From Schmidtea polychroa (Eukaryota): a stretch of 64,000 nucleotides of DNA. The first letter of the stretch is position 1; the number at the start of each line of letters is the position of its first letter. Positions 2,691 to 59,600 of the stretch are shown in pieces. The stretch spans positions 49,166,001 to 49,230,000 of the forward strand of contig CM097887.1 of assembly GCA_044892525.1 (NCBI GenBank), written 5' to 3'. Position numbers and translations under genes: made by a program. The notes beneath the pieces were generated by a model, which saw nothing but the letters and a program-made list of their open reading frames with translations, made no database searches and was not told where the DNA came from.

Positions 2691-4025
<1,335 letters not shown>

Positions 4026-11660: not shown

Positions 11661-11668
11661 ATGTTCTG

Positions 11669-12715: not shown

Positions 12716-12949
12716 ATTAGGAGGTTCATCCTGTAAAACATTAAAATCAGTTTTTGTTTCCATAAATTTTATTTCAATAAATATCAAAATCAAATTATGT
12801 CTTCCTTAATCTTTCTTATTTAAACAAATTTTCTACGAAGATATTTTTAATTAAAATATCTTCTTACTTTGTTTTTTTAAAAATTAATCTAAACTTTAAT
12901 TTTTAAAATTTTTAATTTAAAAATTTCTTCATCATAAAACTTCCTCATA
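12715..12949 (-). repeat. 5' LTR of the 4.6-kb gypsy element
   Basis: Direct repeat of 8388-8622; ends TATGAGGAAG...CCTCCTAATA. Confidence 0.95.
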
Positions 12950-35575: not shown

Positions 35576-35758
35576 ATTCTATTGTCCTATTTTAATTGTT
35601 CTTATTTTTATATTTTTTGTTTTAATTCTTATTTTCTAATTTATTATTTTCCTTATATCCTATTCTATTTTATTCTTAAATTTGTTTTTGTTTTATTTTT
35701 ATTTTAATTTAATTATATTTCACCTAATTTCTTGGATACCCTTCGATTCAGCCCAACA
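35576..35758 (-). repeat. Start of the 3' LTR (183-bp block shared with 56434-56616)
   Basis: Identical by eye to 56434-56616. The A-rich composition continues leftward, so the LTR is probably longer. Confidence 0.85.
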
Positions 35759-35998
35759 AATCACTCGGGGACCCATCAAAATTGCGTCCCGCAATTACAT
35801 ACTTACTTCATTCATTCATAAAAAGAAATAAAATAAACACGACATCATATACAATAAATTTATTAATAAGATAAAGGTCAAAATAGAACCAAGCAGGTAT
35901 CACTTATGGTGATAGGATATATACACAGAAGTTCACGCTAGATAATGTTTTACAGTTCACACTAGATAATGTTTTAAATCAGTACTGGCATTGTTTTA

Positions 35999-36625: not shown

Positions 36626-36680
36626 TATACTGTTATACATCAAACATTTAATTTATTTACAATTGTCGACGGTTTTTTGT

Positions 36681-37361
36681 TTAATCGTCTTTCTTTTGGG
36701 GATTGTTTTCGGTGATTCTCATTAGGGTGGTCTCTGCCTTAATGACCCTATATCTCAACTCTGGTAGCATTGCTAACTGTCGGTCCTTTTCTCGGGCCTC
36801 TCTCTTTAAATGTCTAATTTCTTTTTCCAATCGTCTAATCTCTTCCCTTTTCTTTTCCAGGTTTCTTTTTAGCTCAATTTGTAGGAAGTAATTTTGTTGT
36901 TGATGTTTTCCTTCTATCTCTCTATATTTGCGGATCCACTTCTTCATTCCTTCACTTTCTTGTTGACTTTCTTGCAATTGTTTCTCCAGTTCCTCTATGG
37001 TTGCTTGCCGTTCTCGCGCCTCAGTCTTCCAATAATCGTTAATCACTTCGTTTGCCTTTCTACTGGCCCTTTCTTGCCATAATTCTTCCTCAATCTTCTC
37101 CCAATTTCTCCCTCGTTTTCGTTGTTCTTGCAGCCATTCGTTTTCCTCTTCTGTTTCTCTTTTTACTTCCCCTAGCACTCTACATTCTTTCTTTAGTATC
37201 TTTATTATTTTTCGATCTTCTATGTATTTGTTTACCAGTCTCTCGTTTTCACACTTCTCTGCTCGCAACTCTGCTTCTAGCGTTTGTGTTTCAGTTGTTT
37301 CTGTTACAATTTCTCCTTCTTCCACGTCACTCGTGATTTCTATCATTTCTTCGATTTTCAT
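36681..37361 (-). CDS. Accessory ORF-D: coiled-coil protein (~226 aa; frame open from 37415)
   Basis: Intact frame, E/K/R-rich heptads throughout. Confidence 0.65.
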   Translation of the reverse strand: MKIEEMIEITSDVEEGEIVTETTETQTLEAELRAEKCENERLVNKYIEDRKIIKILKKECRVLGEVKRETEEENEWLQEQRKRGRNWEKIEEELWQERASRKANEVINDYWKTEARERQATIEELEKQLQESQQESEGMKKWIRKYREIEGKHQQQNYFLQIELKRNLEKKREEIRRLEKEIRHLKREAREKDRQLAMLPELRYRVIKAETTLMRITENNPQKKDD

Positions 37362-37543
37362 ATCTATAATATGTACAGTTAATGGTGCGCTATAGTGCGA
37401 CTTATACATATACATTTATATAAAATTTAATAGTTTGGGTTACAATCCCTTGAATACTTTTACAATACTTTAATTTTTTTTTGTTTGGGATATACGTCCC
37501 GTTTTTTTTTTTTTTTTTTTTGTTTTTATCTTTTTGTTCGCCG

Positions 37544-38599
37544 TTATACGAAGGTCTCCTCCTGTCCCACATACCCTTCATCACTATCGACCGCTGGATG
37601 CAACTGTATCGCAATAGGGTCATAAGGTAGGTAGTATTGGGGAATTTGAGCTCTCAATTCATTAACTTCGTCTCTTAGGGCTCGAGTGATGTTCAGCTCT
37701 TCGTCGAGCAGGTAGGTGAGATACCTTGTCTCTTCGTCTTTCATCTCTATTTGTCTATCTAGAGCCTTGATTTTCTCGTCGCCCTTCCATTTTTCAATTT
37801 CTATTTCCAAGTTTTTGATATTTTCGGCATACATTTTCCTCTCGTTTTCTAATTTTTTGTTTTTTCCAGCTAGGACCATATTTCTTTGTTCTAGTGATCC
37901 CTGTAATCCATTGAGGTCTCGTTTCATCTCTGCGACCTGATTTACTAATTCCACAACCCGTCCTGCTTGTTGGGTTATCATCTCCTCCATTGCGGCATTC
38001 TCGTGCTCTCTTATGTCGCATTTTATTGCCAAATGTCGCTCGAACTCCATGGCCTTCATCTGCCATGTTTAGCTTCGGGCGGCGACCTTTCTCAACCGTT
38101 TCAGTTCTTCCTTTATTATTAAATTTTCCTCCCATTTACCCTGTTCGTTTTCATATCCGAGTCTCATGGGCAATTCTTTCATCTCTTTTTTCATTTCATT
38201 ATTTTGTCTTTTCCATTTTCTGGCCTCTGCTTATAAATGCATCAATTTCCTTCCTTCTATTTGCTTTTCCGCTTCGCGTTTTGCGTTTTCGTCAGTGAGC
38301 CTCTTTCTCGCTTCCTGCACTAGCTGCTTTAAGTAGTGGCTGTGCGCTTCTTGGCGGGTATTTTCTAATGATGCCCATTTTGATGCCCTTTTACAAGCTT
38401 CTGCTTCCTCTCTTAAATTGTGGATTAGCCATTGATATTTACTGTTCTCATCTTCTCTGGCTTCTTCGATGTAGTTTCGGGTGAGGTTAGTTAGTTGGAA
38501 CATTACTTTGTTCCATTTTTCGTTGTATTCTCGGGGAATTTGTGTTTTGTGGGTATTGGTTGGGGCTATCGTAGTTTCGGTTATTCTCTCTTGTGTCAT
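37544..38599 (-). pseudogene. Accessory ORF-C: ~351-aa coiled-coil protein with two in-frame TAA (38231-38233, 38069-38071)
   Basis: Track ORFs 38231..38599 and 37544..38059 are in the same frame. The segment between them reads AEARKWKRQNNEMKKEMKELPMRLGYENEQGKWEENLIIKEELKRLRKVAARS. Confidence 0.7.
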
Positions 38600-38797
38600 T
38601 TCTAAATCATTGATATAGATTAATCTTTTTATTATGGAGAAAAAAATTTTTTATTCATTAGTTACTGGTTCTTCGGAAATTTTCGCATCATTTTTGGGTT
38701 TTCGTATTTAGGGTTTTTCATACTATTATTATATAATATTTTATTGGTTATATACGCCGATATATACAGGTTATTATATACAACATTATTCGATGGA

Positions 38798-40186
38798 TTA
38801 CTCCGTTCTACCCTTCCCTTCCCTTCTCACTGTCATTTTTATATATATTGTGTCGTTTTTTGTCATCTCTTCCATCTTCTGCTGTAAGATGAACGTGGGT
38901 GCTCCTGATGCTGCTCCTTCCTCATCAGTAGGTCGTCGGTAACACAGCTGGGTTCCCGTTGTTTTGAAGCTTTGTTCGTGGATGCTTTGGTCATTCATCA
39001 TTGTGATATCGATTTTTGCCTGGAATGGCCATTCTATTACCTCGTCATATTCCCCTTTACATAATAGGAAAAATATTGAAAAATGTGTATTCAATCCGGC
39101 TCCATCTCCGTTGGGATATATCCTCATTTTCATCTTGTACCCATTTTTCCAAGAATGGAATGCAGGACTTGTTATTCTTGTCTCTTCCCCAGTTTTGGCT
39201 TTCCGTATTCTTTCTTTCACTCCCGTTATCTTCCATATATAAGGTGCTGTTGGGGTTATCTCATTTAGATTTATTTCCTGTATTTTCCGATGTAGCTCCT
39301 TGGCCTGATTATTACTGATTTCTATACGATTTATTTGCATCTTTATGTTAGCTCGGGCTTCTTCGAACGCTTCTCTTTCTTATAGTAGTTCTTTGACTAA
39401 CGCTTTCAACGATGTTATTTCTATCTCCATTTGTTTTACTTTCTCTTCACTTTCTTGTAACGCAGTCGACCACATTTCTGCGTGGGTTGAAGCATTTTCT
39501 ACTAAATGATGTGGTAATTCTCCTCGGTGTAGTAGTTTCTGACAGCCCCATTTTCCGAGTACACATGTCATTCTTTTCCTTTCGCATTCCTTTAGGTGTT
39601 GGGCTATTTTTATTGTTCTCCCTTCCTCGCATCAGTTCGGGCATTCCCCACTGAACTCCGCGCATACCTTTTCCTCTTGGACATTGTGATGTTTGCTGGT
39701 GAGATTTTTCCACGTATCTATTTCTCCACAATGTTTGCATCTTTCTAGTCTCTCTTCACACTGGCTTTGATGCTCTTTTTCTTCGCTTGCTCGAATGGTT
39801 TTATGGCACCTTTCACACTGGCTGATTCTGTACATACATTCCCCCATATGTTGCACTACTTTCCATATTACTCCCTTCCATTCGCATGGGGTATTTTTAC
39901 ATCCCAGATTGGTGTTTACCATGTCTTTCACTGCGGCTTTATCCTCGTTAGTGTCTTCTAAACTCGATATTAGTGTCTCTTTACACACCGGGCACCACTG
40001 TGGTCTATTCTTTATTGCTTCACTGATACATTCCTTACATAATCTGCATCCACATTGGGTTTGGTGAGGTTCCTTTAACAACTTTTCACATATTCCGCAC
40101 ATAACATGTTTGTGTATTCTGATCGTTGTAGATTTTCGGACTTGTTCGACAATCTCTCTGAACTCTTCTCTTTGTCGTTTATCCAT
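38798..40186 (-). pseudogene. Accessory ORF-B: intronless full-length TRAF (RING, TRAF zinc fingers, coiled coil, MATH), 462 codons, two in-frame stops
   Basis: RING CGICEKLLKEPHQTQCGCRLCKECI...CPVC; zinc fingers CKNTPCEWKG...HMGEC and CPN*C...HLKEC; MATH YIWKI...SPAFHS...GYKMKMRIYPNGDGAG...HFSIFF...GEYDEVIEWPF. The track ORFs starting at 40186, 39571 and 39340 share one frame, broken by TGA 39632-39634 and TAA 39380-39382. Confidence 0.92.
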
Positions 40187-40271
40187 TCTATAATTATATA
40201 TACATATAGTTCTTATCGATACAGGTTCGATATTTTATTTACAATTATTTACATTTTAAGCTAGGTTTGGT

Positions 40272-40791: not shown

Positions 40792-43700
40792 CTATATACG
40801 GGGTTTTGGAGGGCGCTGGGCGTTCCAGGCCTCCACCCACTGTTCTTGTTTGACATCACTTGGTCGTTTCACTCGATGTTGGAAATTTCTGATTCGGGTC
40901 ATCTCTAGTTCTCCGCGATGTCGTTTATCTTTAATTATTTTTATTGTTCCCCCCGTTATGATTAGGAATGCCCCTGTTATTATTATCCCACTGATCCACA
41001 TCATCTGCTTTACGCTTATACTCTCTGGTTTTTCCTTGTTTATTAATGTTGATATCGCTTCTGTACTTTTCTCGTTTCCTCTTTTGCCATTTCCTTTCAT
41101 CATCTCTCGTATTCTTGCTATTTCCTCGTTCATACCCTCCTTTGCCATCTTTTGTATTTTTTCCATCTCTTCCTCCGAAACATAGTTGTCCTGAGCTTCC
41201 TCGCCGGTTTTCTTGTGCTTTCCTCCTTCGTCTTTTTCGTCGTTGTTTTTTCTTTTCTTCCCTCTTTTCCCCGGGTATCGTCGACATTCCCTTTTTGATT
41301 CGTTCCTCCAGATACAAACTGTGTATTCCTTTGGGGGCTGCTGCTGCGTCACATATTGATGGCATCTCTCACCTGGTCCTAATCTTGAAATACAGACTTT
41401 GTGTTCTTTTCTTGGTTGAAGTGGCGTTATTACTACTTCACCTCCTTTTCCTAGGTGCACCTCTTTTCCCTTCACGTTCGTTATTCTTTTCCCGTCTCGA
41501 TTTCGGTATGCTTCTTGTATTCTTACCTCTGTTATTGGTTCTGTGTCCTCATTTATCAGTACTAATCTCTGATACGCTCTAGACATACATCTTCCTAGTA
41601 TGCACCTTTCCTTTAGGCCCCATTCTTCCTTTAAGTCCCACTGCTGTTCTTGTGCTTGCTTTTTCTTTTCTTGTTTTAGTTCTTCCTCTTTGCTATCTTG
41701 ATTCTCCGCTTCTTTGGTTTCTTTTATCGTTCTCGTCCCTCCATGAGCTGTTACTAACTCTATCAAGGTTAGCATGATTATCATTAAGATCATATTTGTT
41801 TCCATTTCTTTGTTAGTGAAAGGTAGGCATACCCTCTGTTTTCCATTATTCGGTTTTTCCTCCTCTTTGGTCTTGGTTCCCGGGCTGTTTCCCTCTCTTC
41901 TTGTACCCGAATCCTTGTTTTCCGGTTTATCCTCTTCCGGTTCTCTTTTCCCTTTATCCTCCTTTCGGCCTTTTCCGTCATTGTCATCGTGTTTATCTCC
42001 CCCGCTGTTGTTTAAAATGTCGTCCTCGACATTTATATCGTTCAGTAATCTGCGATATGCTGTTAACACTCTGTTCCTTGCTAACTTTGCTTCGAATTCA
42101 AACTCTTTTCTACCCGTTGCAGCATGTCTCTTTCTATTCCATTCTTTGACTAATTCTCTCAATTGAATACGACGATGTTTTCCAATTCGTTGTTGCTCGT
42201 TTTGATTTTGCGTGAATTTGAGGTCTTCTCTATTTAATACTATTAAGATAATTTTAGGCGTCCCCCCTTTAGTTAGGGTATTCTTTACCATCGCGTTTTC
42301 TCCGTTTTCGTAAAATTCGTTTATATTTATCGCATATTTATTATTTTGTGGTACTCTCCATGTCAATAATAATTTCATTGCTTCTAGATTTTTCCGTACC
42401 GTATTCCACTGAAATTGTGATGTGTTTTTGCATATATTTTCAACTTCCTCTTTTGTCGCATTTTTGCAAATAAATCTGATCATTTCCAAGTTTGGCTGTA
42501 TGGTTGCCCAGTCCAATGTGGAGTTCCCTTCGTTTGATTTTTCGTCTAGTCTCGATCCTGATTGATGTAGGATGTGGAGTGTTTTTGGGTGTATTTTCGT
42601 TATAGCTGCATACATCATGGCGGTTTCGCCTTGTTCATTTTTCGTGTTGGTTTCCTCGCCCATATCTCTAAGGATTCTCATGATCGTTATTGCTCTATTT
42701 TCTTTCGCTGCTAGTATTGCTTGTTGTAGTGGTGTTCTGGAATCCTTCGTTACCATCGTAAATGCTCGGGGCAAGAAGGTTTTAATTTTACCGATGTCCA
42801 AATTCGTTGTTTGATCTCTTGCATATGTATGCACGGTTTTTATTATTTCTGATAATATTATTTCATCTGGTAGCTCTAGCATTTCCTCAAAGAACACTTC
42901 TTTCGCTTTGCATATTATTGCTCTTTGATCTATATTCATTGATTTTGTTTCGATGAAGTTATTTGCGATTTTATGGTTCGTTTGCGCCATTGGTTCTCTT
43001 GATGTCTCATGCCTTATTTTCATTTTCTTTCCGGTTGGATTATTGATTCGTTCCTCTGCGGTAAGTATTTGAATAATATCTAGATAATTCTCGCGGATGT
43101 TGTTCATCGTGTCCATCATGTATAATACACTTACCGTTTCCCAATGTTTATTTCGTACCTGAGTGATGAATTGGAATATTGATTTTTCGAATGTGTCAAT
43201 TCGCTTTTTTAATAACTGCTCATCCTTATGATTTGTGAATGTTATTCCTCGTTCTAGTAATTGATTCGGGATTTCGAATAAATGATGTCCTCTCATAGCT
43301 TCTCTCATCAGTGTGTTTTCTCCTCTCGTGAATGCTTCGTTTACGTTGATCATATAATTATTTTTAATTGGGTTTCTCCAAGTGATTAATACTCCGGTAA
43401 TTGTTGTCAGTTTCTCTTTGATCGCTGTTAATAATCCCTCATACATGTTTCCGACTTCTCGATTGTCCTCGTATGATAGTAGCTCCATCAACGACGTAAA
43501 CGCTTCGGTACTTTTCCCTTCGATAGCATGATGTAGTGCGTTTTTCCGATCGTGGTCTTGTGTAGTTATTTTTGATCCTGTATCAAGTAATGCGGTTATT
43601 ATGTCTTTTGTTTTGCCTCTGTTTGCTGCTATCATTAATGGTGTGTAACCTTGGTTATTTTCTTGTTCTGTTGATCGCTTGCAGTCGTGAAATGCTTCTA

Positions 43701-44960
43701 TTGTTTCTAGTATTTGCTCATTGTTACCTACTTTCATGAGTTTGTGTAATGGTGTGTCTCCATAATGATCTGTTATTGTAAATAATATTGGCCATTGACT
43801 TTTAACTACTCGTAATAACGGATGTGTTCTCTCTCTGTTTGCATAGTTTTCGATCATCGTCAATAATCCTCCTAATATTTCGAAATCTAATCGATCTTTT
43901 GCCCATCCGGGTAATTTTATCTTTACCTCTCGTACGATTTTTTCAGCTTCCGATGGTTGTATGCCCAATCGTCCAGTGGTAGGTTCTGCGAGTTGTTGCA
44001 TCATGTTCATTCTGTAGGTTTGCGAACGTGTGGTTAATGTACGGCCTTCTGGTTGACTGGTGGCTGTTTTTGGAATTGATTTGCATCGTGCCACGTTTAC
44101 GTATATTGGCCTGGTGAATGGATTATTTACCAATTTCACTCTTACATTGGTTTCGCCTACGAACAAGATCTCATATGGCCCTTTTCCGTTCCATTGTAAC
44201 TTTCTTGTGGTTCCGGGAATTAATTCTGGGGTCTCGATCATCACCCAATCGCCTGTTCGAAACGTATGTTGCTTCACGTTTTTCTTTCGATCGTGTAAAT
44301 CTTTATAACTTTCCTGGTAGAACTTGATATTTAATCCCGCAGTTTCCCAAATCTCCTGCATTCTTTCTTTGAATTTCGTAACATAATCATCTATCTCCAT
44401 GTATTGCGATATCGGTGGTTGGTATTCCAGGTCCATTGGCATGTTGCATTCTCTTCCGTACATTAATTTAAATGGGCTCATTTTTGTTGATGCGTGAATC
44501 GACATTCCGTAAGCCATAAGACATAGATTTATGTATTCATCCCAATCTCGTTGGTGGCGATCGACGTAGTTTGATAACATTTGTATGAGTGTTCCATTAA
44601 ATCTTTCCGTCATCCCATTGGTTTGAGGGTGATATGGGGATGTTCTTAGTTTTGCGATTTTGAAATAGTTTGTTACTTCGCTCATTATCTCACTCATGAA
44701 ATTAGTTCCTTGATCAGTTAGTATTTGTTTCGGTGTTCCATAACGGCAACATATCTCTTCTACCAGTATCTTTGCAATTGTTTTGGCTTTTTGGTCTGGC
44801 ATCGCGAATGCTTCTGGGAATTTCGTGAGAAAGTCGGTAATCACTAAAATATAAACATTTCCTTTATCCGATTCTGGTAATGGACCAACTACATCCATTG
44901 ATATCATCGTCATCGGCTCTATTGGTACTGGCATTGGCGTTTCGATCCAGTGTTTTTCCT
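40792..44960 (-). CDS. Polyprotein C-terminal part: integrase core + GPY, two ankyrin clusters, internal signal peptide, small ectodomain, transmembrane anchor
   Basis: ISMDVVGPLP / ILTDQG / GMTERFNG (D-D35-E) and GKGPY. ANK motifs GDTPLH, GYTPLMIAA, RKNALHHA, SRTPLQ and GETAMMYAA. Hydrophobic MILMIIMLTLIELVTA (~41750-41800) and MWISGIIITGAFLIITGG (~40950-41005). Confidence 0.9.
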
Positions 44961-47900
44961 TGTTGCACAGGTTAGGCAGTTTTTCACCCATTCGGTTACG
45001 TCTTCCGTTAGGGTTGGCCAAAAATATTTCTGTTTCATTCTTGCTAACGTCTTTTTTGATGACATATGTCCTCCCAATCTCCCATCGTGATATTGCGTTA
45101 GTAACTCTTTTCGTCGGTTTTCCGGTATACACATTAATCGTTTTTCCCCATCCATTATCAGCAACCAATCTTTCTCCATAATATATCGGTGTCGGTGTTT
45201 ATCCATATGTTCTTTTAATTTTTGATCTTTCGCATATACCTCCGTCTTTCCGGTTTTTACATAATCGATAATTTGTTTTAATTCCGCGTCCTCTTGTTGG
45301 TCCTTTCGCAATTGACAGAAATCTAAATCTTCCGCTACTATTAAGCATATGCGTTGCATTTCTGGATCTACCAAATCTGGAAAAATAAACCTTGACATAC
45401 AGTCGGCGTTTGCATTCGCTCTTCCCGCTTTGAATTTTATGAACGGTGAATACTCTTGTAGCTGCATTGCCCATCTCATTAGTCTACTGGACGCTTCTTT
45501 ATGTTGCCCTAACCACACTAATGGTTGATGATCTGTGGTTATACATATCTCATGTCCCCATAGTAAATATCGGAAGTGTTTGATAGCTTGTATTATAGCC
45601 AATGCTTCTCGTTCTGTTACCGAATAGTTCTTCTCGTGCTTTTTGAATATTCGACTGTAATACCCGATTACTCTCTCTTTTCCTTCATCGTCTAATTGTC
45701 CCAGAATCGCGCCTGCCGCGTACCCGCTTGCATCCGTCGCCAATAGAAATGGCTTCTTGAAATCTGGGTGTACGAGGATAGGTGCTTCGATTAGCTTGTC
45801 TCTCAGCGTTTCAAACGCCTCTTGTTGTTCCTTTCCCCAAATGAACGAAATATCCTTCTTTACTAATTCCTGGATTGGTTTTGCAATTCCTGCATAATTT
45901 TTGATAAATTTGCGATAGTATCCGCATAATCCTAGAAATTCCTGAACTTGGGTGACAGTTTTCGGTGCTGGACATGTTTTTATTTTCTCAATGTTTCTTG
46001 GATCTGGCTCCTTTCCTTTAGCTGACACTATGTGTCCCAAAAACGTGACTTTTTCCTTTGCCCAATCACATTTTGAGGGTTTGAGCTTGAGTTTCCATTG
46101 TCTTAATCGAATAAATACATTTCGGATATCCTCCAGATGTTGTTCGAATGTCGCTGAATAGATTAACAAATCGTCAATATATACCATACATTGTTTGATT
46201 CCATGAGTGACGAAGTTCATACACCTTTGAAATGATGCTGGTGCGTTGGTCAGTCCGAATGGCATTTTTCTGAACTGATATAGATCTCGTCCCAACGTGA
46301 AAGCCGTTTTCTCTTTGTCCTCATCTTTGACTTTGATTTGCCAGTATCCACTTTTTAAATCTAAAGAAGTAAAATATGCTGCCCCTTGCAACATGAGTAA
46401 CATTTCATTGATGTCTGGCAATGGATAGGTATCTCTCTTGGTTACTGCGTTTAATTTTCGATAATCGATACAGAATCGTTGGGTGCCATCTTTCTTTTTT
46501 ACCATGACCACTGGGAATTGCCAAGGTGAGCAACTTGGTTCGATCACTTTTGCGTCTAACATTTTTTGTACTTCTGCTTCGGCTATTTCTTTTTGCATTT
46601 CTGCTAGCTTGTATGGTCTCAATGCAATTCGGGTTTCGTCTATGAGTGGTATTGCATGTAGGGTAACATCGCATGTACCCAAATCTAGGTCCGAGATGGC
46701 GAATATATCTTTATATTCTACTAATAATCGGTGCAATTTTTTCTTTTCATCATTCGTCAACAACATACTATCTATGGTCCATAATTCATCATCTTTGATC
46801 ATCTCGTTGGTCACTTTCGGTAATTCTATGTCCATCATTGGGGTCAATCTTCCCAATTTTTCATTCTCATAGATGATTTTGTCTTCCTCTTCAAAATTTG
46901 TGATGTTGATCGGTATCACTCCTTCTGGGTTTATTGTTATTATTTCTCTGGCGAGGGGTAACTCTCGTCGTTTTTCGAATGATTTGCTTGGTTCAAAGAT
47001 AACTTCTCCTTCCATCCCCGTATCCACCTTTATCTGACAAATCATCTGTGATTTTGCTGGTACCACAATTTTCTCTGGACATCTGATTATGGCATTCATT
47101 TTGCATATTCTGCCTGTTCTGTCTTTTAGGCACATGGTTGTTAAGTCAATTACCACTTCTTTTAATAATTCTGGCATCAAATCCGTTCCGATTATGCATG
47201 GTACGCTAAGTTTTGGTATTACTGCCAAATACGTTTCAATTTCGTTGTCCTGGTATCTCAATGTAGTCCACCATCTTCCGACCACATCTACTGTTTCTTT
47301 ACTACATGCTATGATATGAATGGTTGTTGATTCGATATCCTTCCAGTACTTACTGGGAATCTGATTGATTGCTATCGCTGATACGTTAGCTCCGGTGTCT
47401 ATCATAGCATTGGTTTCCTTACCATTGATTTGAATCATAACTGTGACTGCTGGACCTCCAGGTGAATTCATTGCTGCTATTGTTCTTACGTCATCTGCTT
47501 GATCTACACTTTTGGTACGTCGCGTTGGCATATAAAGCATCCCGGGTTGACTTGGTAATTGCGGATACATATTCTGTGTCATGGTCAAAGCGGCTTGTGG
47601 TCCCACGATATCCGGTGGTATATAGCTTCCGTTGGCGATCCAGGTGTTTGTCTTTTCCTTTTCCCAATACGGTGCTGTTTCCATCGGTTTTTCGTTTGGG
47701 TTTCTGTTTGGATATAGACATTTATCGTTCCCGTTATCGTCGTCGTCACTATCGCTGTTTGATGATTGACTTCTGAATCGGTCCAAAAATTTTGGTTTAT
47801 TCTTTTTCAATTGTCGTCTTGTTGCTTCGTCGTACATTACCTTCCGGAATCGTCTGCCTACTTCTTCGTCGGTTCCTTTAATCTTTGTTAATATTTTAAT

Positions 47901-50024
47901 TAATCGTTTTATTCGATGAATGTCTTTTGAGTGACCATGTAATACCATGGTTTTAGCTAAAAATGGTAGAAAGCCTACTATCATTTTCCAGTTAACTTTC
48001 TTTTCCCGCTTGTATATATCAAAACAAGCTAACATTTGTGTTAGTATTACTCTGACGATCTGAATTATGAGTATGATCCCCAATATTCCGGCCATCATTT
48101 GTCCGAAAACTAAGAATCTTCCCCACATTGCTTTCATCATATTTGAGGTTGCTTGTTGGAAATGGTCTGGCGATAATAGCAGTTCGTAATTCGGGCCTGA
48201 TTGATAATTTGTTCCCCCAGTTATTGTAACCATATTTGACAAAATGGATTCTCGTCTGGCTGGGAAGAGTACGTTAAGTCGTGATGTTTCTAGATCTTCT
48301 GGGGAATACATACCACCGTTTGACACGTCTATAGGTTTGAAATCCAGCTCTGTGGCGAGTTCTATTAATCCAAATTTCTTGGGCTCCTCGGATATGGTTT
48401 TTCCCGGTAACATCATCCATTTCCCATCGGGTCTTTCATACAATGGTCCGTACGCATTAGAACAGTTAAAGAGATTTGGATAGAAACCCACTGGATTCAT
48501 AATTCTAGTGACTGGTTGGACGAATCGATTTTGTCCTTTATAACGGATTTCTAATTCATTTGCACATCTCTTTTCGGGTAGTATGGATTTTTCGGGCATT
48601 CGTGCATACGTCTTGGTACACTGGTAGGTGTACATCACTTCTCCTACCATTCTACCAAAATGTCCGTCTGGTAATGGGAGTGATGGCATCGTGTTATCTG
48701 GGTGCGTTATCGCAATAGCTAGCTTTGTTTTCAGTATTTCTTTATTCAATGAACAATCGTTTTGTATGAGATCGTAATATACTTTCTGTAGGGTCGTTTG
48801 TCCACGATGAAATAAAAAATCCATTTTATTATTTGCATATAAGTATAGTTTTACGTCCTCCGTTGCTATCTTTCCCACTGCTCTATCGATTATTTGTCTT
48901 GACATATAGATACCAGCGTAATTGGTTTTATATACTATACTGTCGCATTTGGTGGTTTCTTTCTCTTTGATAAATCTCATACCTAGATCTGGATCGTCGG
49001 TAATTAATGCTGTTGGTGTTTTCTGCGTCGAGAGTCTTTTTTCTCTGGGAGATGGTGGCATTGGTTTTCCATTTCGCATTCTCACTCTTTCGTTTCCATC
49101 TTCGTCGTTTTCGTTCTCATAAATTTCTCCCTTTACTTCATTGAACAAAGCACTTTTTAACAGTTGGAGTCGGCATTTTTGCGTGTTAGCTTCATAGATT
49201 ATAGTTGATACTCCTGTCCTGCATACGTTTTCTGTAGCTCTACATGCTGGGTTGGTCTTCATTTGATAATTATTTGCGTCAAATTGTGCTTCGTATTCTT
49301 TTAATTCGACCGTATAAGACTCGATCACTACTACTCCCGATATTACCTCGCCTCGGATCGTATACGTACCTCCGTTACATGACCCATCTGATGACTTTAC
49401 TTTTCCGGATACGTAAACACTTTCGGTTTTAATCATTCCAGTTTGTCCGTGTATCGTCACTCCGTTATGCATTTTTAGAGCTCCGGTTCTAAATAGCTCT
49501 TTACAGTCTTCTCTTTGTATTTGTACGATTTCTTTATCTAGACCGGGTAGTATGAGGGTTGAATACGAATATTGTCCGCAATAATACGCGAGTACCTTTT
49601 TTGATACAACGCATTCTCTTGCTTGCGTTCTGATGAAATCTGATTCTTGATATACATGGTAGGTAACTTTTGTTTTTACTATGTCCAATCTGTTGGGTGA
49701 TGCTTGCCTGCATTCTTCTATATCTCTCAATGAGTATTTATCTCTCATTATCATATTATCACAATCGTAGATGGTAAAACCCGTTGCTCCACTTGTGCAC
49801 AACATCCATATCATCATAGTCATCATTAACGAATTTATCGATGCTTTTCGGCTTGCTGGGTCTTTCATGGGTAGTTCCCATTCTAGTTCATTTAACAGCT
49901 TTTTCAATCTAACTTGCATCGACCTTTCTTGCTCATTTTTTCGTGGCGCTTGTATAAGTCTTTTCCATCCTCCGGCACTGATAATATGGGGTTCAATAGT
50001 GTCTTCTATGATTGACACGGTCAT
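44919..50024 (-). CDS. Polyprotein: envelope glycoprotein (48020-49840) fused in frame to protease, RT, RNase H and the integrase zinc finger
   Basis: A single 1701-aa open frame. Signal-like LMMTMMIWMLCTSGATG, Cys-rich ectodomain and TM FLVFGQMMAGILGIILIIQIV, then MIDTGA (47399-47391), YIDD (46181-46170), ATDASG and H-x6-H...C-x2-C. A -1 shift near 44955 leads into the integrase core. Confidence 0.93.
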   Translation of the reverse strand: MTVSIIEDTIEPHIISAGGWKRLIQAPRKNEQERSMQVRLKKLLNELEWELPMKDPASRKASINSLMMTMMIWMLCTSGATGFTIYDCDNMIMRDKYSLRDIEECRQASPNRLDIVKTKVTYHVYQESDFIRTQARECVVSKKVLAYYCGQYSYSTLILPGLDKEIVQIQREDCKELFRTGALKMHNGVTIHGQTGMIKTESVYVSGKVKSSDGSCNGGTYTIRGEVISGVVVIESYTVELKEYEAQFDANNYQMKTNPACRATENVCRTGVSTIIYEANTQKCRLQLLKSALFNEVKGEIYENENDEDGNERVRMRNGKPMPPSPREKRLSTQKTPTALITDDPDLGMRFIKEKETTKCDSIVYKTNYAGIYMSRQIIDRAVGKIATEDVKLYLYANNKMDFLFHRGQTTLQKVYYDLIQNDCSLNKEILKTKLAIAITHPDNTMPSLPLPDGHFGRMVGEVMYTYQCTKTYARMPEKSILPEKRCANELEIRYKGQNRFVQPVTRIMNPVGFYPNLFNCSNAYGPLYERPDGKWMMLPGKTISEEPKKFGLIELATELDFKPIDVSNGGMYSPEDLETSRLNVLFPARRESILSNMVTITGGTNYQSGPNYELLLSPDHFQQATSNMMKAMWGRFLVFGQMMAGILGIILIIQIVRVILTQMLACFDIYKREKKVNWKMIVGFLPFLAKTMVLHGHSKDIHRIKRLIKILTKIKGTDEEVGRRFRKVMYDEATRRQLKKNKPKFLDRFRSQSSNSDSDDDDNGNDKCLYPNRNPNEKPMETAPYWEKEKTNTWIANGSYIPPDIVGPQAALTMTQNMYPQLPSQPGMLYMPTRRTKSVDQADDVRTIAAMNSPGGPAVTVMIQINGKETNAMIDTGANVSAIAINQIPSKYWKDIESTTIHIIACSKETVDVVGRWWTTLRYQDNEIETYLAVIPKLSVPCIIGTDLMPELLKEVVIDLTTMCLKDRTGRICKMNAIIRCPEKIVVPAKSQMICQIKVDTGMEGEVIFEPSKSFEKRRELPLAREIITINPEGVIPINITNFEEEDKIIYENEKLGRLTPMMDIELPKVTNEMIKDDELWTIDSMLLTNDEKKKLHRLLVEYKDIFAISDLDLGTCDVTLHAIPLIDETRIALRPYKLAEMQKEIAEAEVQKMLDAKVIEPSCSPWQFPVVMVKKKDGTQRFCIDYRKLNAVTKRDTYPLPDINEMLLMLQGAAYFTSLDLKSGYWQIKVKDEDKEKTAFTLGRDLYQFRKMPFGLTNAPASFQRCMNFVTHGIKQCMVYIDDLLIYSATFEQHLEDIRNVFIRLRQWKLKLKPSKCDWAKEKVTFLGHIVSAKGKEPDPRNIEKIKTCPAPKTVTQVQEFLGLCGYYRKFIKNYAGIAKPIQELVKKDISFIWGKEQQEAFETLRDKLIEAPILVHPDFKKPFLLATDASGYAAGAILGQLDDEGKERVIGYYSRIFKKHEKNYSVTEREALAIIQAIKHFRYLLWGHEICITTDHQPLVWLGQHKEASSRLMRWAMQLQEYSPFIKFKAGRANANADCMSRFIFPDLVDPEMQRICLIVAEDLDFCQLRKDQQEDAELKQIIDYVKTGKTEVYAKDQKLKEHMDKHRHRYIMEKDWLLIMDGEKRLMCIPENRRKELLTQYHDGRLGGHMSSKKTLARMKQKYFWPTLTEDVTEWVKNCLTCATRKNTGSKRQCQYQ

Positions 50025-50042
50025 TTCTACGTGATTTGCGAA

Positions 50043-53000
50043 CTATTTATTGGGTATTTTCCTTGCAGCTAATCCCATCAAATTATACATCAAATAAGTC
50101 ATTACCACTAGATGATGTTCGTCGTCATTTGCATTTGTCGTGAGCTGTTCAATCACTCTCTTGGTTTCATCCCAATCCGTTTTGGTAGTTTTCGTTTTTT
50201 CTTTGATTAGCTTTGGGATTATCCCCGATACGATGTGCCATAATTGTCTAGCTTCTACACTGGCTACTTTCCGTTGCCACAAGCGTCTAAGTTGTGGGTT
50301 TGTTATTATCAACATATCTTTTATCAATTCTCGTATCCATTTTTCTCCTCTTTCAATCGTTGGTTGGGCTTCCTTTAGTTCTCATACTATTTTGTCTAAC
50401 TTTTCCAATCGAACTTGCCCTTGTCCTTGTTTTACTTGTTCCTTGGTTTTGAACTCAGATTTCTCTCCTTGTTTCTTAGGTCTTCCTTTTGCCCGTTTTT
50501 CCATCATCGTTCCAGCTTCTCTGGTATTTTCGTAGTTCGGATTTCTTTCGTTATCCGTTCTGGGTAATGAGCTATCGTTATTTCTCAGCCACTCATTCCA
50601 TTCATCTATTATTTTATCAGTTTGACCTTCCGATGTTATTTTTGTTGGTTCTCTTTGCTTCTGGAATTGTTCATCCGTTTCGGTTTCCGTAGTATTGTCG
50701 ACGATTTCCTTGATGTTCAGTTTCGTTGGTTGTTGATAACTTGTTGATGGTTGGTTGTTGGTCCATATTTCGGCTCCGGTTGGCCATCTCACTAATAGCG
50801 GTGATCTTTCTCCTGGTTCCTCGTCACTATCTTCGAGGATAATCTCTTCGACTTCTTCAGTTTCATTAGATTTACTTGGTGCTTTGTTCGGACTCGGAGT
50901 ACTCAAACTACCTTTTGTTGGTTTATTGATTTTGCTTTTCCTTTTCAACGGTTTTCCCAACATTTCCGCCATTGTTAACACATTAGTCTCTTCTAGTCTC
51001 ATGGGTGTTATTCCGACGTCTGCATTATCGTCTAGTGATTTTCCTTGCAGTTGTAGATGGAATGGAGTTTCGTATGCTAATTTCTTTTTTAATTCCCTGA
51101 TTTTGGTGGTTGGGTGTACTTCTACTTCTTCAACATTCTTATCTGGGTATTTAATTCGGATTCGATATCTTTCTTGGGTATCTTGTGACCACTCGTGGTT
51201 TCGCCACTTCCCGATAATTTGTTCCAGTTGTTCAGGGTACCATTCGTTGTATTGCCGGTATTCTTCTATAGTTTTTACTATCTCTCTCAGACAATGGATA
51301 TTATCCGATATTTTTAAAATGAAGTTAGCCAATGCTATTACCTGTCGTTTTTGATTTTTCGCTCCCTTTATCAGGATGTCGCCTAATTGTTTATATCTTT
51401 CTCTCTCTTCTCGTTCTCTTGCTTCCGTCGCTTCCTCGCCGTCTATATCGGCATATTCTCGTTCCTTTTTCCGCATTGCATGAATATGTCTCGCCTCATT
51501 TTCGCTTTCTGACGTGACGTCCGTCTCGCTTTCGTCATCTGATGTCTGTCCCCTTGCTTCCTCTTCATATTCTGGAGGTTCCTCTTCTTCTTTCTCCGAT
51601 TCACTTTCTGTCTCACCAATGTCTGTTTCTACGAAGATTCCTTTCCGGATTTCCCATTCCTTATTTTCTATATTCCACACTCTTTCCCATGGGGTTCGTC
51701 TGCAGGATCTGGTACTTAGTTTCGTGATTTTTCCTTGTAGTTCCTTTTCTTTTAACCATTGTTGGTGAATTTCAATTATTTCTGTAGATTTTTGATATAA
51801 CGTTTTCATCCGGTCTCGTATTTCTTTTTGATATGTTACGTCTCTTGTTCGAAATTCATCCATTGGTACTATCCTGATTATTTGGTGATCGTCCCACATA
51901 CCCATTTCACTCAACGAGGTGTCGTCCTCCGCTCGTAATATTATTTTATCGTACATCATGACTACATCATTTACCATACCATCACTACTTTCGCTACGTA
52001 CCTTTTCCGTTATCTCTTGGTTTATCTTTGATACCAAATCATCCACTGTACTCTGATTGCTCATTTTTATTCGTCGTTTCTCTTCGTTCGGTAACCATAT
52101 GGTTATTTCCAACCTCTGCGGCTGGGTTTCTTTTAACCTTCCATATTTGTGAATCAAATTTATGGTTCTCCAATCACTCATTCGGAGCAATTCTGTATCT
52201 CGTAACCGGCTCATTAGTTCGTACATGGCTGGGGCTCGTCTGGTGATGAGTAAATCCCAGTTGTCTTCCACTTGTTCTTGAATTTGTTTGATCAGCTTGT
52301 CCAGGTTTCGTCTCAGAGTACATTTTTTTATTTGTTCTAATTTCAATTTGATATTAAAATCATATTCCGCCTTGGCATCTTTAGCCCAATCGTACAGGTT
52401 AGCTGGTTGTTTTTCTTTGTGCAACTTCAGTATTTGCGTTTCTCCTGGCCATATTAGTGCATCCACTAAGTGCATATCTTGTTTGACTTGCTCTCCTTGA
52501 TATTGGTATAGGTACTCCTTTTTCCTCGAGCTACCTAAGTGTTCCCGTATCCAATCGAAAAGTTCGTCGGTGACTGTGTTTTTAATCCATATTCTCTCAA
52601 GTCCTTTACTCGTTCCGATTTTTATTACATATCGAGTGGTATCGACCTGCTTCATTTTTTCCATATATTTTTTTATAATTGATTTTTCCTCGTTTGGTAT
52701 TAAATCTTTCTCGTTTCTTTCCAATTTCATCACTTTTTGCACGAATCGTCTGAATGGTATTATATCGATGAACTCTTGGTTCCTCACTACTACTGGGAGT
52801 ATTTCAGCTACTTGTCTTATCGCTTCCTCCCTCGCTTTTCTCAACTTTATTTCGATATCCTCGTCTTCACTTTCGCTGGTTATCTCGCTTTCGTCTTCTT
52901 CCTCTTCGATTTCCCCTTTTGGAGGTTCGCTTATTTCATTTAGCTGTAGTATTTCTCCACCCAAACTGCTCACATAGTCTTCGTCTGAGGACGACGTACC

Positions 53001-53888
53001 TTTTGTCCTTTTCATCATGTTGATTCGCAAATTTCTCATCCTAGGTACTCTCTTTAGTTTTCTATTTTCGAATATCGTTGTTTCTTCTGATTCCGATTCT
53101 TGTAGCATTTGGGGGTTTAACTGACTGATTTGCTCCTTGTTTTGGTTGTTTCCCTCTTTTATTCTTATTTCCGTTTCTTCATGTTTCTTTTCTATTTTAT
53201 CTTTTATCTTTTTCCAGAATATTTTCTGAATTCTCTGGTTCCCTTTCAAGATCGTGGTTGAATTCTCTGTTTTCATTTTCGTTGTCGTTTCTTTTAACTT
53301 TTCTGGTTCAGTCATGGGTACTACCCCTGGGTTTTTCCCGTAATTGTAGCAGTACTGGCTTTTCATGTCTTTTACTAATTTCATCATATTTATTCGCAAT
53401 GGTTGTTCTTGTCGTTGTTGGTTGCGTTCTTGTTTTATCCTCTCTTCCTCGGCCTGTAGTCTTTGCCATTCTTGTACATGTTGATGTACTTCATAACTGT
53501 TGAGATTTTCGGTACTCCTCATCATACGTATATTCTGGGTTTGTTGTGGTGCTGGTTCTTGTCTTGGTCTCATCATTTGTTGCATCATCTGTTTCATTTG
53601 GGAAATTTCCTGCATAACGTTCATTTGTTTTCCTTCACTAGGGTTACTTTGTCGTTGCGGATTCGACATGTAATTAGTATTTCGTTGTGGTGGTCGTTGT
53701 GGTTGACCCCTTTCTCGGCAATCTCTGGAGATGTGACCTGGCTGACAACAGTTAAAACAACCTCTCAACTGGCATCTATTTTCCGTATGTCCGCGCCGTC
53801 CGCAACGATTACAATTTGCGTTTCTATAACAATCTCTGTCCCAGTGTCCTGGTCTACCACATGTTCGGCACTGCTTGTTATCGTTCAT
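50043..53888 (-). CDS. Gag C-terminal part: three CCHC knuckles, Q-rich and acidic linkers, three ubiquitin-like domains; in-frame TGA at 50382-50384
   Basis: CRTCGRPGHWDRDC, CNRCGRRGHTENRC and CFNCCQPGHISRDC. The track ORFs starting at 53888, 50327 and 50024 are all in the same frame. Confidence 0.85.
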
Positions 53889-54940
53889 ATTTCGTTATTG
53901 AAATTGTTCTCATTATTCAGGTTGTTACGATTACCATTATTCCCATTTGATCGTCCTTGTGGTGGTTTGAAGATTTGATGCGCTCCTGGTATAAATTGAT
54001 TCATTTTCGGTTCCTGATTGTTGTTATCTCCGTTATCCGCTTTCGCTATTGCTGTCGCTATCCTCCCATCCTCTTGCATAATATTCATTTGAGCTGGAAG
54101 GTGGAGCTCGCATCTTGTAGCCCAGTCTATGGCTTCCTCTAACGTTTTGCACATTTGACAACCTACTGAGGCTCTTACCTCCTCTCGGCGTAATCCCTCT
54201 ATGAAATAGCCGATCAGATTTTCCTCGGGTAATTTCCCATTCATTGCTTTCTTCGCTAATCTTCGTAATTCACTGGCATATAATGTTATCGATTCGTTCG
54301 CTCTTTGTTTCCTATTTGCTAGTTCGCCCAACGCCTGGTTGATTGGCTTACTGGCTCCGAAGGTTTTCTTCAAGAATGTTTTGATATCTTCCCACTTCTC
54401 TAATTTCGTATCTCTCTCTTTAGCTTCTAAATATACTTCTAATGCGCTATCGCACAAAAACAACGGCATCCTTTTGCTAATTGCTTCGGGTGTCCATCCA
54501 CACACAGTGATATAAACTTCAAAATTAGTTATAAACGTTGCTAACTTGTTTGCATTTCCATTGAACGGTTCTCCTCTGAACTTCTCTTTATACTCGTCGG
54601 TTTTTACGACATTCGTCATGATTGGTGTTCTAGATTCGTCTGTTTCTTTTAAATTGTCTAACGATGTGACTAAACTCTGGGCTGATAATTCTTCGGTTGA
54701 CGTTGCTAAACTATTAGTGATGTCGGACAAACTTTCTCTGCTTCGAGATCGACTAGGGGTGTATCCGAGATTTTCTTGGTCAAATATGGGTACTTGATTG
54801 GTTCTTCTTGCTCCTTGTGATATTCCTCTTTGATGTTTAATAGATCGTCCTCTTTTGAGTTGTTGTAGTTCGTCTCCTGAAAATAATACGTCTCCTGGCT
54901 TACTTGAAGATCTAAGATTTGGTTTATCCGTGATTCTTTC
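53885..54940 (-). CDS. gag: Gag capsid domain (no ATG start in this copy)
   Basis: FNGN...FITNFE...W...LFLCDSALEVY...WEDIKTFLKKTF...RKQRANESITLYASELRRLAKKA...FIEGLR...TLEEAI is a retrotransposon capsid pattern. The frame is open from 54940. Confidence 0.85.
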   Translation of the reverse strand, partial: ERITDKPNLRSSSKPGDVLFSGDELQQLKRGRSIKHQRGISQGARRTNQVPIFDQENLGYTPSRSRSRESLSDITNSLATSTEELSAQSLVTSLDNLKETDESRTPIMTNVVKTDEYKEKFRGEPFNGNANKLATFITNFEVYITVCGWTPEAISKRMPLFLCDSALEVYLEAKERDTKLEKWEDIKTFLKKTFGASKPINQALGELANRKQRANESITLYASELRRLAKKAMNGKLPEENLIGYFIEGLRREEVRASVGCQMCKTLEEAIDWATRCELHLPAQMNIMQEDGRIATAIAKADNGDNNNQEPKMNQFIPGAHQIFKPPQGRSNGNNGNRNNLNNENNFNNEI

Positions 54941-55982
54941 CTACGCTTCCTTGTAATTAGCGGCTACCGACTTGGGTGGATTGGTTTCTGGTGAAGTTTC
55001 CTTCGTAAATTATTCGGTATGAGTCTGCTACTGCGATTCTGAGGAGATTTACTAGTCCTTGACAGATGGCTGCTAATACTATGAGGCTGAATATATCGGT
55101 GATTTGTTCGAAGTTGGAGATGTCGCTCTCTGTATCTTCTTCCGTTCTGGAGTCTTCCGGTTGCTGGGTTTCTTGGTGCGGGTTCTGAATGGATTTATTC
55201 TTGGTCGATTGTTGATTTCTTCGAATTTCTTTTGTGCAGGTTCTGGGTTGGCTTGATTGGCTGGCTTGATTTGATATCTAAAATGAAAAAATGATCTCGT
55301 GTTTCATCTGCTTACACGACTTCATCATTCTTTCTGCAACATTCAAACACAGACACCTTTTAGGTTTCTGTTTGTGTTTCCCCCATCTTTTGTGAAATCC
55401 TTTCCGCGGGTTATAATTTCCCATCAGCCCGTATTTTTCGTCGATTTTAAATTATCTATATGCGGTAGTAACAATTATCTATAGAGTCGTAATAATTATC
55501 TATTCGCTATCAATTATAATATAAATAGGTCGTTGTCGGTCTCTACTTATTACCCCCCTTCGTTTTCCTAATCCCTTTGCGCCATGTCGCTATTTTACTT
55601 TTCGTATTTACTATTATTCCACTCGGTTCTACTCTGGAACCAATAAAATATATTTTCCCGCTTCACCCAAAAAAATTATTCCGTAGAGTTTCTCTATTTC
55701 ACTGGGATCCCTTTAATTAGTTAGTTACTTTCCTCTTCTACTCGTTATCATCATTTCACCTATTCTTTATTTTCCATTATCTTTTAATTCATTTCCTTCT
55801 TCCCCTTCCTTTTCCATTATAATCTTATTATCTTTTCCACGAGCTCGTTTATTTCCTCTCTAAACTCAAATTTTCGTAATTACATTCAATTTGTTTCTAG
55901 CTAGCTTTAGTATTCCATTTCACTATTAATCTAAATATTATCTCATTGTAGCTTAACTGCTATCTATCGCTTTTCTAGGCCT

Positions 55983-56278
55983 TTACGACTGGCTGGCACT
56001 ATTCAACAGCTCAATCTTCTTCCTTCTGATCGGTTGGACTATTCGACAACTCGATCTTACGACTGGCTGGCACTATTCAACAGCTCAATCTTCCTCCTTC
56101 TGATCGGTTGGACTATTCAACAACTCGATCTTACGACTGGCTGGCACTATTCAACAGCTCAATCTTCCTCCTTCTGATCGGTTGGACTATTCAACAACTC
56201 GATCTTACGACTGGCTGGCACTATTCAACAGCTCAATCTTCCTCCTTCTGATCGGTTGGACTATTCAACAACTCGATC
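55983..56278. repeat. Four near-identical 74-bp tandem repeats in the 5' leader of the giant element
   Basis: Units start at 55983, 56057, 56131 and 56205. Each is a dimer of ~37-bp half units (ggcactattcaacagctcaatctt / ggactattcaacaactcgatctt). Confidence 0.95.
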
Positions 56279-56433
56279 TTAATATTCCCCACTCTGCATG
56301 CTGCTACTTCTCTTTTCCTCTTTTACCCCGAATTATCATTTTCTCTGTCTCTACTTTTAATTTGTCGACTTGATCTTTACCGCTTGAGAGTGTTTCCCCT
56401 TTCCCCCCTTGCTCAAAACGCACGACGATCGCG

Positions 56434-56616
56434 ATTCTATTGTCCTATTTTAATTGTTCTTATTTTTATATTTTTTGTTTTAATTCTTATTTTCTAATTT
56501 ATTATTTTCCTTATATCCTATTCTATTTTATTCTTAAATTTGTTTTTGTTTTATTTTTATTTTAATTTAATTATATTTCACCTAATTTCTTGGATACCCT
56601 TCGATTCAGCCCAACA
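56434..56616 (-). repeat. Start of the 5' LTR (183-bp block)
   Basis: Identical to 35576-35758. The sequence switches abruptly to unrelated GC-richer DNA at 56433. Confidence 0.85.
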
Positions 56617-57446
56617 ATACTAATATATTTGGGTCAGAATCATGTTTTGCCCAACAATAGCTAAGCTGCAAATTAACATTATCATACCAATTGTTATTAT
56701 AAATATATAAATTATGTCAGTACATTGCATGATTTTTCGCGGGTTAAGTCTAATTATCATATATTTAATAAATATATTATGCTCTCCCCCATTTCTGTAC
56801 TCGAGTTCTAGATTGCTGTGGACTCAATTCCTATTCATATCTCATTTTATAAATATTAAATCATAACAAACTCTTTCATTTTAATTTGGTTTTAAGAAAT
56901 AATGACATTTAATGTCCATCGCAACAATTTGATCATTGTGGGGTAATGACTGTCACGCTATTTCAGTTTGAATGGCTACCATGATGTTGCCGAGTTGCTA
57001 GCCTTATATTCATGAAAGGGATGAAATCTGGATATGGAGCGAAAATTTTAGAAAAATTGTTGTTAGATTATCAGATTCAAATTTGTTATTTTGAGACTGT
57101 TTCCCATCGTTTCAGCCACCTTTAACCACCTTGTTAATTAGATAAGTTGATGTGTTTGATTAATTGTGAATTTAATAATATAAATTTTGTTTTATAATTT
57201 TAGAACAAAAAAACACCGATATCTTTACTGATTCATAGTCACAAATTTCTAATAAATACAATGTCAATTGAAAATAAGCCACAGGTGAAAATTGAAAAAA
57301 GTTCTTATAATATATATAGTGCAAATCCCAATAGTAGGTTTACGGATGTACTTGTAAACAGTTTCTGTGTATGATGGTGTCTCCAGGGGCGAATATGATT
57401 TTTCATACGCCATGTTTACAAGTTTACAAATTTTCTGTGACCAAGC

Positions 57447-59600
57447 TAGGGTTTGGAATCCCGGGATTTGACTTTTTAAGCCTAAAAGGAAAAATACCTT
57501 ACAGTTTCCTTAAAAATTCTTTAAAACAATCGTTTTTGGTTGAACATTTTCAAATTTAAATTTTTTCGGTTGAGATTTGAATTTTGTCATATAGAAAATA
57601 CTTGGAATTTTTTTTGCATTCAAATTCTTAAAATATATAAATTTTAAAAATCGAAATTCTTGGAACTTTTTTTTTCAATATTCAATTTGTAATTATATTC
57701 TTAAAATTTTTTGTTGGCGCTCAGACGTAATTAGTATATAATTGTTTTCACGTGTTATTGTTTTTGATTATTTTAAAGTGTAGATTTAATTAAATTATCA
57801 TTCGCACTATTTGAACAACAAATTTTAAAAATATAATGGCTTCTTACATAGACCATGAAAAGAAAAGTAATTTTGCTGTTTGGAAACATTTTTTACGAGA
57901 AGAAAAAGGACAGACAGCGATGTGTAAGTATACCGACTGCAAAAAAATTCTAAAAATTGGGGGTGGGTCAACGAAAGGTCTCTATACGCATCTACTTTCC
58001 GTCCATAAAATTAACATCACAACAGCTACTACTTCGGCTAACACATCAGATGAACCACCAACAAAAAAATCGAAAACGTTAACCAAGTATTTTCCGATGC
58101 TGGAACGAGAAGAAAAATCACTTCCTGCTACACTTGCAAGGTTAACCGCACTTGATGGGATTTCATTTAACGTTATATGCCGTTCTTCTGATTTACGTGC
58201 AGGTCTTATAGCAACAGGATTCAAAAGTTTACCTACAACAGTCAACACAGTGCGCAAAATAGTTGTAGATTACAGCAAAAAAATTAAGAATTCATTAATT
58301 ACGGAAATAGATGGCAAAAAAACCCACAATTCGGTGTTGGTGAGAGATTTTCCTTATCGTTTGATGAATGGACATCACTCCGTAACCGTCGGTACATGAA
58401 TATTAATTTACATGCTCAAAATTGTCAGTTCTGGAGCTTAGGCTTAATTCGAATAACAGGATCAATGCCTGCAGATAAATATATTGAGCTCCTAGAACAA
58501 AAGCTCGCAGAATATGGACTTGATTTGCGAAAAGATATCGTCGGAATTATGACTGACGGAGCAAGTGTAATGAAAAAGTTGGGAGATTATTACCTGTAAA
58601 TCAACAATTATGTTTTGCCCATGGTGTGCAACTGGCCGTAATTGAAGTACTATATCAAAAGCAAAAATTAGAAACAGATCAGCAATTCGACGAAGACGAA
58701 CAATCAGAAGTAGAACACGATTTTTCGGAGAGTAACGACGATGAAATTTTTTCTGACAACGAAGAATTGGTTGATCTCGATTCTGGTCATAGGCATGGAG
58801 GAAACCAAAGTGATGTTACTGAGATAAATTCCTCTCCAGTGATCAAAAAGGTACGAAAATTGATAGTAATGTTCAGACGATCGCCAACAAAAAACGATAT
58901 CTTGCAGAAATATGTTGCGGCTGAATTTGGGAAGCAAATAACTCTAATAAAAGATTGCAAGACTAGGTGGAACAGCCTTTTGTCAATGCTTGAACGTATC
59001 TATTTATTAAAAAATTGTATTCAAAAGGCATTGATAGACATAAGTCTACCTGAAGGTGAATCATTTGCTTTATCTAATGATGAGCTTAAAATGATATCTT
59101 CTATCATTAGTGCTCTAGTACCAGTAAAAGCAACAGTCGAGGCCCTTTGTCGTCGGGATGCTAGTCTGTTTACAGCCGATGTTGCTATAACTTTTATGTT
59201 AAAAAAACTTAAAGATTCTAACAACGTTATATGTCAAAAATTGCATTCAGCTCTCATTCTTCGCATTCAACAAAGGCGGACAGATATCAGTGGTGTACTT
59301 CAGTATTTACATAATGGTAGGACAAACGTTCAGTCCGAATCTGAAATAGCGCTCGTAACAGTTCCATCTGCCGCAAAATGTCGCAAAATAATAGTTGAGT
59401 TACTCGAAAGATTAGATGCTGCAAATCCAGCTACAGCACTAACAGCTCATGAGTCCGAAGTTGAATCTTCTGTTTCAAATGAGGCACCTATCGAAATTGT
59501 TTCAGATTCTTCTGATTCTCCATCTGAATCTCTTTCCTTTTCTCTTGAACAACCTTTAACTATTGCAGACGAGCTCAATAAAGTGTTGGGCTAGAACTGA
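57447..59600 (+). mobile_element. hAT DNA transposon, frameshifted and 3'-truncated
   Basis: End-like TAGGGTTTGGAATCCCGGGA at 57447. BED finger VWKHF...C...C...H...H, then FSLSFDEWTS, IMTDGAS, LCFAHGVQL (CxxH) and CKTRWNSLL. Two frameshifts (~58345, ~58580); the C-terminal dimerisation domain is missing. Confidence 0.9.

Follow-up and report, generated by a model that had tools for sequence, protein, structure and literature searches.

The 64,000-nt window of Schmidtea polychroa contig CM097887.1 carries on its minus strand a giant Gag-Env-Pol retroelement of about 21 kb. It is bounded by identical 184-nt direct repeats with a spacing of 20,858 nt. The coding order is Gag capsid, zinc knuckles with a long extension, Env, protease, reverse transcriptase (RT), RNase H, integrase, ankyrin repeats and a TRAF gene. 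Env (PF24664, E 4.6e-70) lies between the Gag extension and the protease (RVP), shares one frame with the latter and is thus in frame with Pol. The capsid, which is split off by a frameshift here, is continuous with the knuckle/extension part in the relative P0001. Further breaks were evident: beside the frameshifts near 53,890 and 45,000, stops occur at about 50,380, 50,043, 39,630 and 39,380. Therefore, this copy is unable to make the polyprotein on its own. In the host the family is abundant: all four runs covered 30 of 30 bins of positions 49900-54000, each contributing between 484 and 5,541 contig pieces.

Table 1. Features of the retroelement and of its Gag extension (positions in the window).
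Feature	Position	Strand	Remarks
Terminal direct repeat, upstream copy	56434..56617	.	184 nt, 100% identical to 35576-35759
Gag capsid frame	53885..54940	-	Retrotrans_gag E 1.5e-11; a frameshift splits the capsid from the next frame in this copy
Zinc knuckle and Gag extension frame	50382..53894	-	1,170 aa; zf-CCHC E 4.7e-8
Candidate element-protease site upstream of units 1-2	53010..53024	-	aa 291; P0001, P0003 and P0004 have it at the corresponding place
Helical segment A, before unit 1	52641..52841	-	models; weak in-register alignment with helix D and the start of unit 3
Unit 1, candidate ubiquitin-like domain	52419..52640	-	aa 419-492
Helical segment B, units 1 to 2	52116..52418	-	model; 35% / 25% identical to P0001 / P0004
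Unit 2, predicted beta-grasp ubiquitin-like domain	51858..52115	-	aa 594-679; long helix 1 and inserted loop
Helical segment C, after unit 2	51639..51857	-	TRAF cargo directly after segment C in relatives
Candidate element-protease site, unit 2 to helix D/unit 3	51471..51485	-	aa 804; similar motif in P0003 at the matching place and in P0004 before helix D
Helical segment D, before unit 3	51171..51419	-	model; P0004 46% identical over 52 aa
Unit 3, degenerate ubiquitin-like segment	50955..51170	-	aa 909-980
Weak BCL2-like segment	49965..50180	-	Pfam Bcl-2 E 0.093 (below Pfam cut-off); with an internal stop codon
Env (Monjiviricetes-type fusion protein), protease, RT, RNase H, integrase zinc domain	44919..50042	-	Pfam scan
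Integrase core, then ankyrin repeats	40792..45198	-	rve E 4.7e-13, Ank_2 E 2.1e-19
Captured TRAF gene (RING, zf-TRAF, MATH)	38798..40234	-	interrupted by two in-frame stops
Terminal direct repeat, downstream copy	35576..35759	.	184 nt

Several peculiarities of the element were noted in passing. Its terminal repeats are 100% identical despite six breaks in the coding region. By eye, a promoter-like sequence continues from the downstream repeat copy and is missing at the upstream one, thus the LTRs may be asymmetric or truncated. The 5' leader contains a 74-nt tandem repeat in five copies (55909-56352), the central ones 99-100% alike. The frame continues for about 1,200 aa after the integrase core, with the ankyrin repeats and with hydrophobic stretches near its end. 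The TRAF gene is whole and intronless and sits downstream of the integrase; relatives instead have TRAF pieces inside the Gag extension. Between it and the downstream repeat (35999-38650, minus strand) are four mostly coiled-coil-like accessory ORFs of 139-244 aa, for which Pfam returned no match above cut-off.

The element is likely of the Burro kind of planarian giant retroelement. Burro is described with Gag, knuckles, a MATH_TRAF_C domain, Env before the protease and ankyrin repeats (PMC6431247). Burro/GYPSM1 giant gypsy-like LTR elements share with ours a CCHC Gag with a long extension, Env between Gag and protease, a length of over 20 kb, ankyrin repeats and MATH/TRAF cargo. They differ in that the present copy has TRAF as a separate gene after the integrase. 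Because a BIR/IAP match was absent, the element was classed as Burro-like and not as Burro1; in the 14 element frames scanned neither BIR nor dUTPase was detected. Gene order and Env class are also those of the GAG-ENV-POL errantiviruses with an HSV gB-type Env reported from Platyhelminthes, Nematoda and Bryozoa (PMC13524379), and by eye the Env resembles the Smed_errantivirus_1 row of that work. Its main text contains no occurrence of ubiquitin, ankyrin or TRAF.

The preliminary description had proposed three ubiquitin-like (UBL), non-conjugatable domains in the Gag extension. All three segments were located in the single 1,170-aa minus-strand frame (53894-50382) at the positions given there (aa 419-492, 594-679 and 909-977), and models and frames bore out the helical and acidic linkers between them. 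A C-terminal Gly-Gly after the last strand, the hallmark of conjugatable ubiquitin-like modifiers, is absent as claimed: no unit ends in di-Gly, the sole Gly-Gly of the frame is at aa 312, and in an alignment with natural ubiquitins positions 75-76 were Gly-Gly in none of seven unit sequences.

The fold was then assessed unit by unit. The predicted model of unit 2 has the beta-beta-alpha-beta-beta-beta topology and superposes on ubiquitin-like domains with an rmsd of 2-3 Å and identities of 8-22%, among many others on those of Dsk2, BAG6 and Ddi1. On these grounds a beta-grasp ubiquitin-like fold is well supported for the unit. Unit 3 was modelled at a pLDDT under 50. Its sequence matched Pfam ubiquitin with E 3.7e-4 (20.7 bits, below the 25.4 cut-off) and Rad60-SLD (PF11976) with E 0.01, again below cut-off, and in the PDB it matched a designed ubiquitin over its full length (E 0.026). 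None of 40 shuffles scored as high as unit 3 against natural ubiquitins. We consider it moderately supported, from sequence, as a ubiquitin-like domain. The case for unit 1 is weak. Two models agreed on a beta-beta-alpha start at a pLDDT of 31-54, and the best PDB match of a three-sequence profile was a redesigned ubiquitin (E 0.036); the tight segment had no ubiquitin-clan match in Pfam. Thus the beta-grasp assignment, originally made for all three, stood for unit 2 as a prediction, was backed for unit 3 at the level of sequence and only weakly for unit 1, and the claim of integral, non-conjugatable UBL domains is correspondingly strong, moderate and weak. Integral UBLs such as Dsk2, BAG6, Ddi1, Rad60 SLD and UBX resemble unit 2 in the predicted beta-grasp, and like the units they are not conjugated. 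The differences are the low identity mentioned above, a longer helix 1 with an inserted loop and the lack of the canonical hydrophobic patch. In tandem ISG15/FAT10 the domains pack head-to-tail, whereas here helical spacers of about 100 residues separate them.

Conservation was examined in five relatives. P0001-P0003, drawn from 7,999 scored candidates, form one cluster with about 42% identity over the searched region; P0004 (31%) and P0005 were retrieved when 1.84 billion entries were searched with a profile. Units 1 and 2 are 51 and 50% identical to P0001 vs 35-41% in the flanking helices, and 38 and 37% identical to P0004 vs 25-30% in the helices. No other stretch of the extension is as well conserved as these two units. 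In P0004 helix C comes after unit 2, then a MATH domain (E 3e-28) and a segment homologous to helix D; the sequence ends just before the position of unit 3. In P0005, helix C is followed by zinc fingers of the TRAF/Sina type. As different TRAF parts occupy one place in these two relatives, the polyprotein may have a hotspot for cargo insertion there.

Possibly the units are decayed relics of captured host UBL genes, persisting as folded spacers or free of selection. Ubiquitin scores near background are consistent with this (those of units 1 and 2 were each reached by 6 of 40 shuffles), as is the lack of unit 3, together with helix D, in P0001-P0003 (none of 69 unit 3 residues aligned to P0001). 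However, junction patterns suggest that the predicted gene models of P0001-P0003 skip this region, so the absence is not evidence of a loss of unit 3. In DNA, one contig of 316 nt (about 83% identical) covers the whole of unit 3 without a gap and differs at 54 positions. As units 1 and 2 are also kept above their linkers in the comparison with the distant P0004, we regard relics as improbable. Minority variants in run X1 fell on third codon positions in 11 of 13 cases vs 5 of the other 21 sites, a count of 34 sites inside the frame that derives from a selected and biased subset (40 of 1,097 shown); the excess fits purifying selection among active lineages.

Did the three units arise from each other? 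Single-sequence comparisons were no better than chance (p 0.80, 0.80 and 0.12). Comparing profiles, unit 2 matched unit 3 with E 6e-4 (0 of 40 shuffles). When the preceding helix was included, modules 1 and 3 aligned in register from helix to strand 1 over 54 columns and modules 2 and 3 over 46 (0 of 25 shuffles each). Modules 1 and 2 gave no in-register alignment and a score reached by 1 of 25 shuffles, and hhalign probabilities between modules were 5-28%. Units 1 and 2 have in common a Trp at ubiquitin position 62 (six of six sequences). It may be that a helix-plus-UBL cassette was triplicated internally long ago, which would account for these alignments; we take this as a lead and not as a result. 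It is conceivable, yet unlikely, that such a triplication gave rise to a multi-UBL effector with a surface of its own that acts as a scaffold for the TRAF/BCL2-like cargo or takes over an E3 or a deubiquitinase of the host. The literature searched contained no counterpart of such a multi-UBL signalling adaptor encoded by a retroelement.

The preliminary description further suggested proteasome/ESCRT adaptors or ubiquitin decoys that aid budding or stability. Some features are compatible with ubiquitin mimicry: the superposition of unit 2 on, among many others, the UBLs of Dsk2, BAG6 and Ddi1, the presence of an Env, Gly47-Lys48 retained in unit 3, and an aromatic residue near position 44 in units 1 and 2 (Tyr at about position 44, depending on the alignment register). 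Yet the recognition patch of ubiquitin, Leu8, Ile44, His68 and Val70 (PMC5264512), was not found. These residues are invariant in 80 of 80 natural ubiquitins and none is kept in any of the seven unit sequences, with a register uncertain by about one residue. At position 44 unit 3 is gapped in the ubiquitin alignment and has Gln in the PDB-match alignment. By the definitions of late-domain motifs used in our scan, the frame contains one PPxY, at aa 773, which is missing in all three relatives scanned (P0001, P0003 and P0004), and no PT/SAP; no conserved late-domain motif was found. Pfam scans of element frames and relatives detected no UBA or UIM either. In addition, cuts at a candidate protease motif (below) would detach the units from capsid and nucleocapsid. 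A role as adaptor or decoy is therefore rather improbable and this proposal was not upheld. Overall, the preliminary description is partly confirmed: the observation was real and the fold call largely right, whereas the budding/decoy role lacks sequence hallmarks.

Another thought is that the units mark sites at which deubiquitinases or SUMO proteases of the host process the polyprotein, by analogy to the ubiquitin inserts of cytopathic pestiviruses. Cleavage by these enzymes needs a C-terminal glycine. Here no Gly-Gly follows any unit, and this argues against such a function; we consider it highly improbable even though BVDV inserts were among the fold matches and a viral polyprotein is known to carry inserts of ubiquitin and of ubiquitin-like proteins (PMC13517609).

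A candidate motif for the element's own protease occurs six times in the frame vs 0.69 times in shuffles (p 0.001; the pattern was chosen post hoc). It brackets units 1 and 2 (aa 291-804), apart from unit 3, and cleavage at these sites would free the units from capsid and nucleocapsid. The lost patch residues, the lack of a conserved late-domain motif and this bracketing lead us to a tentative proposal: the units may be docking modules of accessory proteins that are released and then target ubiquitin or apoptosis signalling of the host. The protease would cut near aa 291 and 804 and yield one product with units 1 and 2 and another with unit 3. These would bind partners in the host pathways via an element-specific surface, in units 1 and 2 possibly formed by the Tyr near position 44 and the Trp at 62, and would help the expressing cell to survive. 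The predicted fold of unit 2, the sequence matches of units 1 and 3, the conservation of units 1 and 2 above the helices and the in-register helix-plus-UBL alignments favour this, as does the company the units keep: P0004 and P0005 carry TRAF cargo directly behind unit 2 and helix C, and the present copy has cargo of the TRAF, ankyrin and BCL2-like kinds. Further, Burro cargo has been proposed to meddle with apoptosis and ubiquitination (PMC6431247), and the captured IAP of Burro1 is reported, second-hand, to protect planarian stem cells (PMC13465017). Against docking, a shared fold by itself shows no function.

Alternatively, the units could be structural modules internal to the element which bind its own Gag/nucleocapsid, RNA or the neighbouring helices and aid assembly or packaging. 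Coronavirus nsp3 offers an analogy, and no more than that, in its non-conjugatable ubiquitin folds Ubl1 and Ubl2 within a viral polyprotein; Ubl1 binds the nucleocapsid protein (PMC9938351; PMC8769549). The absent recognition patch and the conservation of units 1 and 2, which stay while TRAF cargo moves around them, would agree with an internal role. On the other hand, the predicted cleavage would part the units from capsid and nucleocapsid, and the captured cargo around them is of a host-signalling kind. An internal role is thus possible but somewhat doubtful. We rank docking first, followed by the internal structural role, adaptors or decoys, relics and, last, host-protease processing signals.

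How much of this was known? The Burro text of PMC6431247 names one Ubi2/SUMO-like domain (PF11976), located between MATH and BCL2, a publication which the preliminary description had omitted. Here the same order, Ubi2/SUMO-like then BCL2-like before Env, is seen with both matches below Pfam cut-offs (E 0.01 and 0.093); the latter was obtained on a read-through translation with X at stops, and the segment had no match in the PDB. Because unit 3 matches PF11976, precedes the BCL2-like segment and follows the post-MATH helix of P0004, it probably is the published domain. Units 1 and 2, both upstream of the P0004 MATH position, are additional candidates not named in that Burro text. Beyond that text, our literature searches returned no publication that treats UBL domains of such elements; Jurka 2007, Grohme 2018, Lee 2026 and Sacco 2022 may annotate them. 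With the element type and, probably, one of three domains already in print, the finding extends a known annotation and establishes no new element class. About half of the Burro polyprotein was previously unannotated. The two further putative UBL domains, conserved across elements about 31% identical, are the most stable part of this region, and, being small, they lend themselves to tests of which pathway of the host is manipulated by these elements.

The remainder of the window contains a second gypsy-type element of ordinary size (8388-12950) with 236-nt repeats that are 99% identical, and broken ORFs which by eye look like a hAT-type transposase (57815-59594, plus strand). An uninterrupted ORF at 2904-4025 (plus strand) resembles, by eye, a 26S proteasome ATPase subunit, and a WD40-like ORF lies at 5702-6430 on the minus strand.
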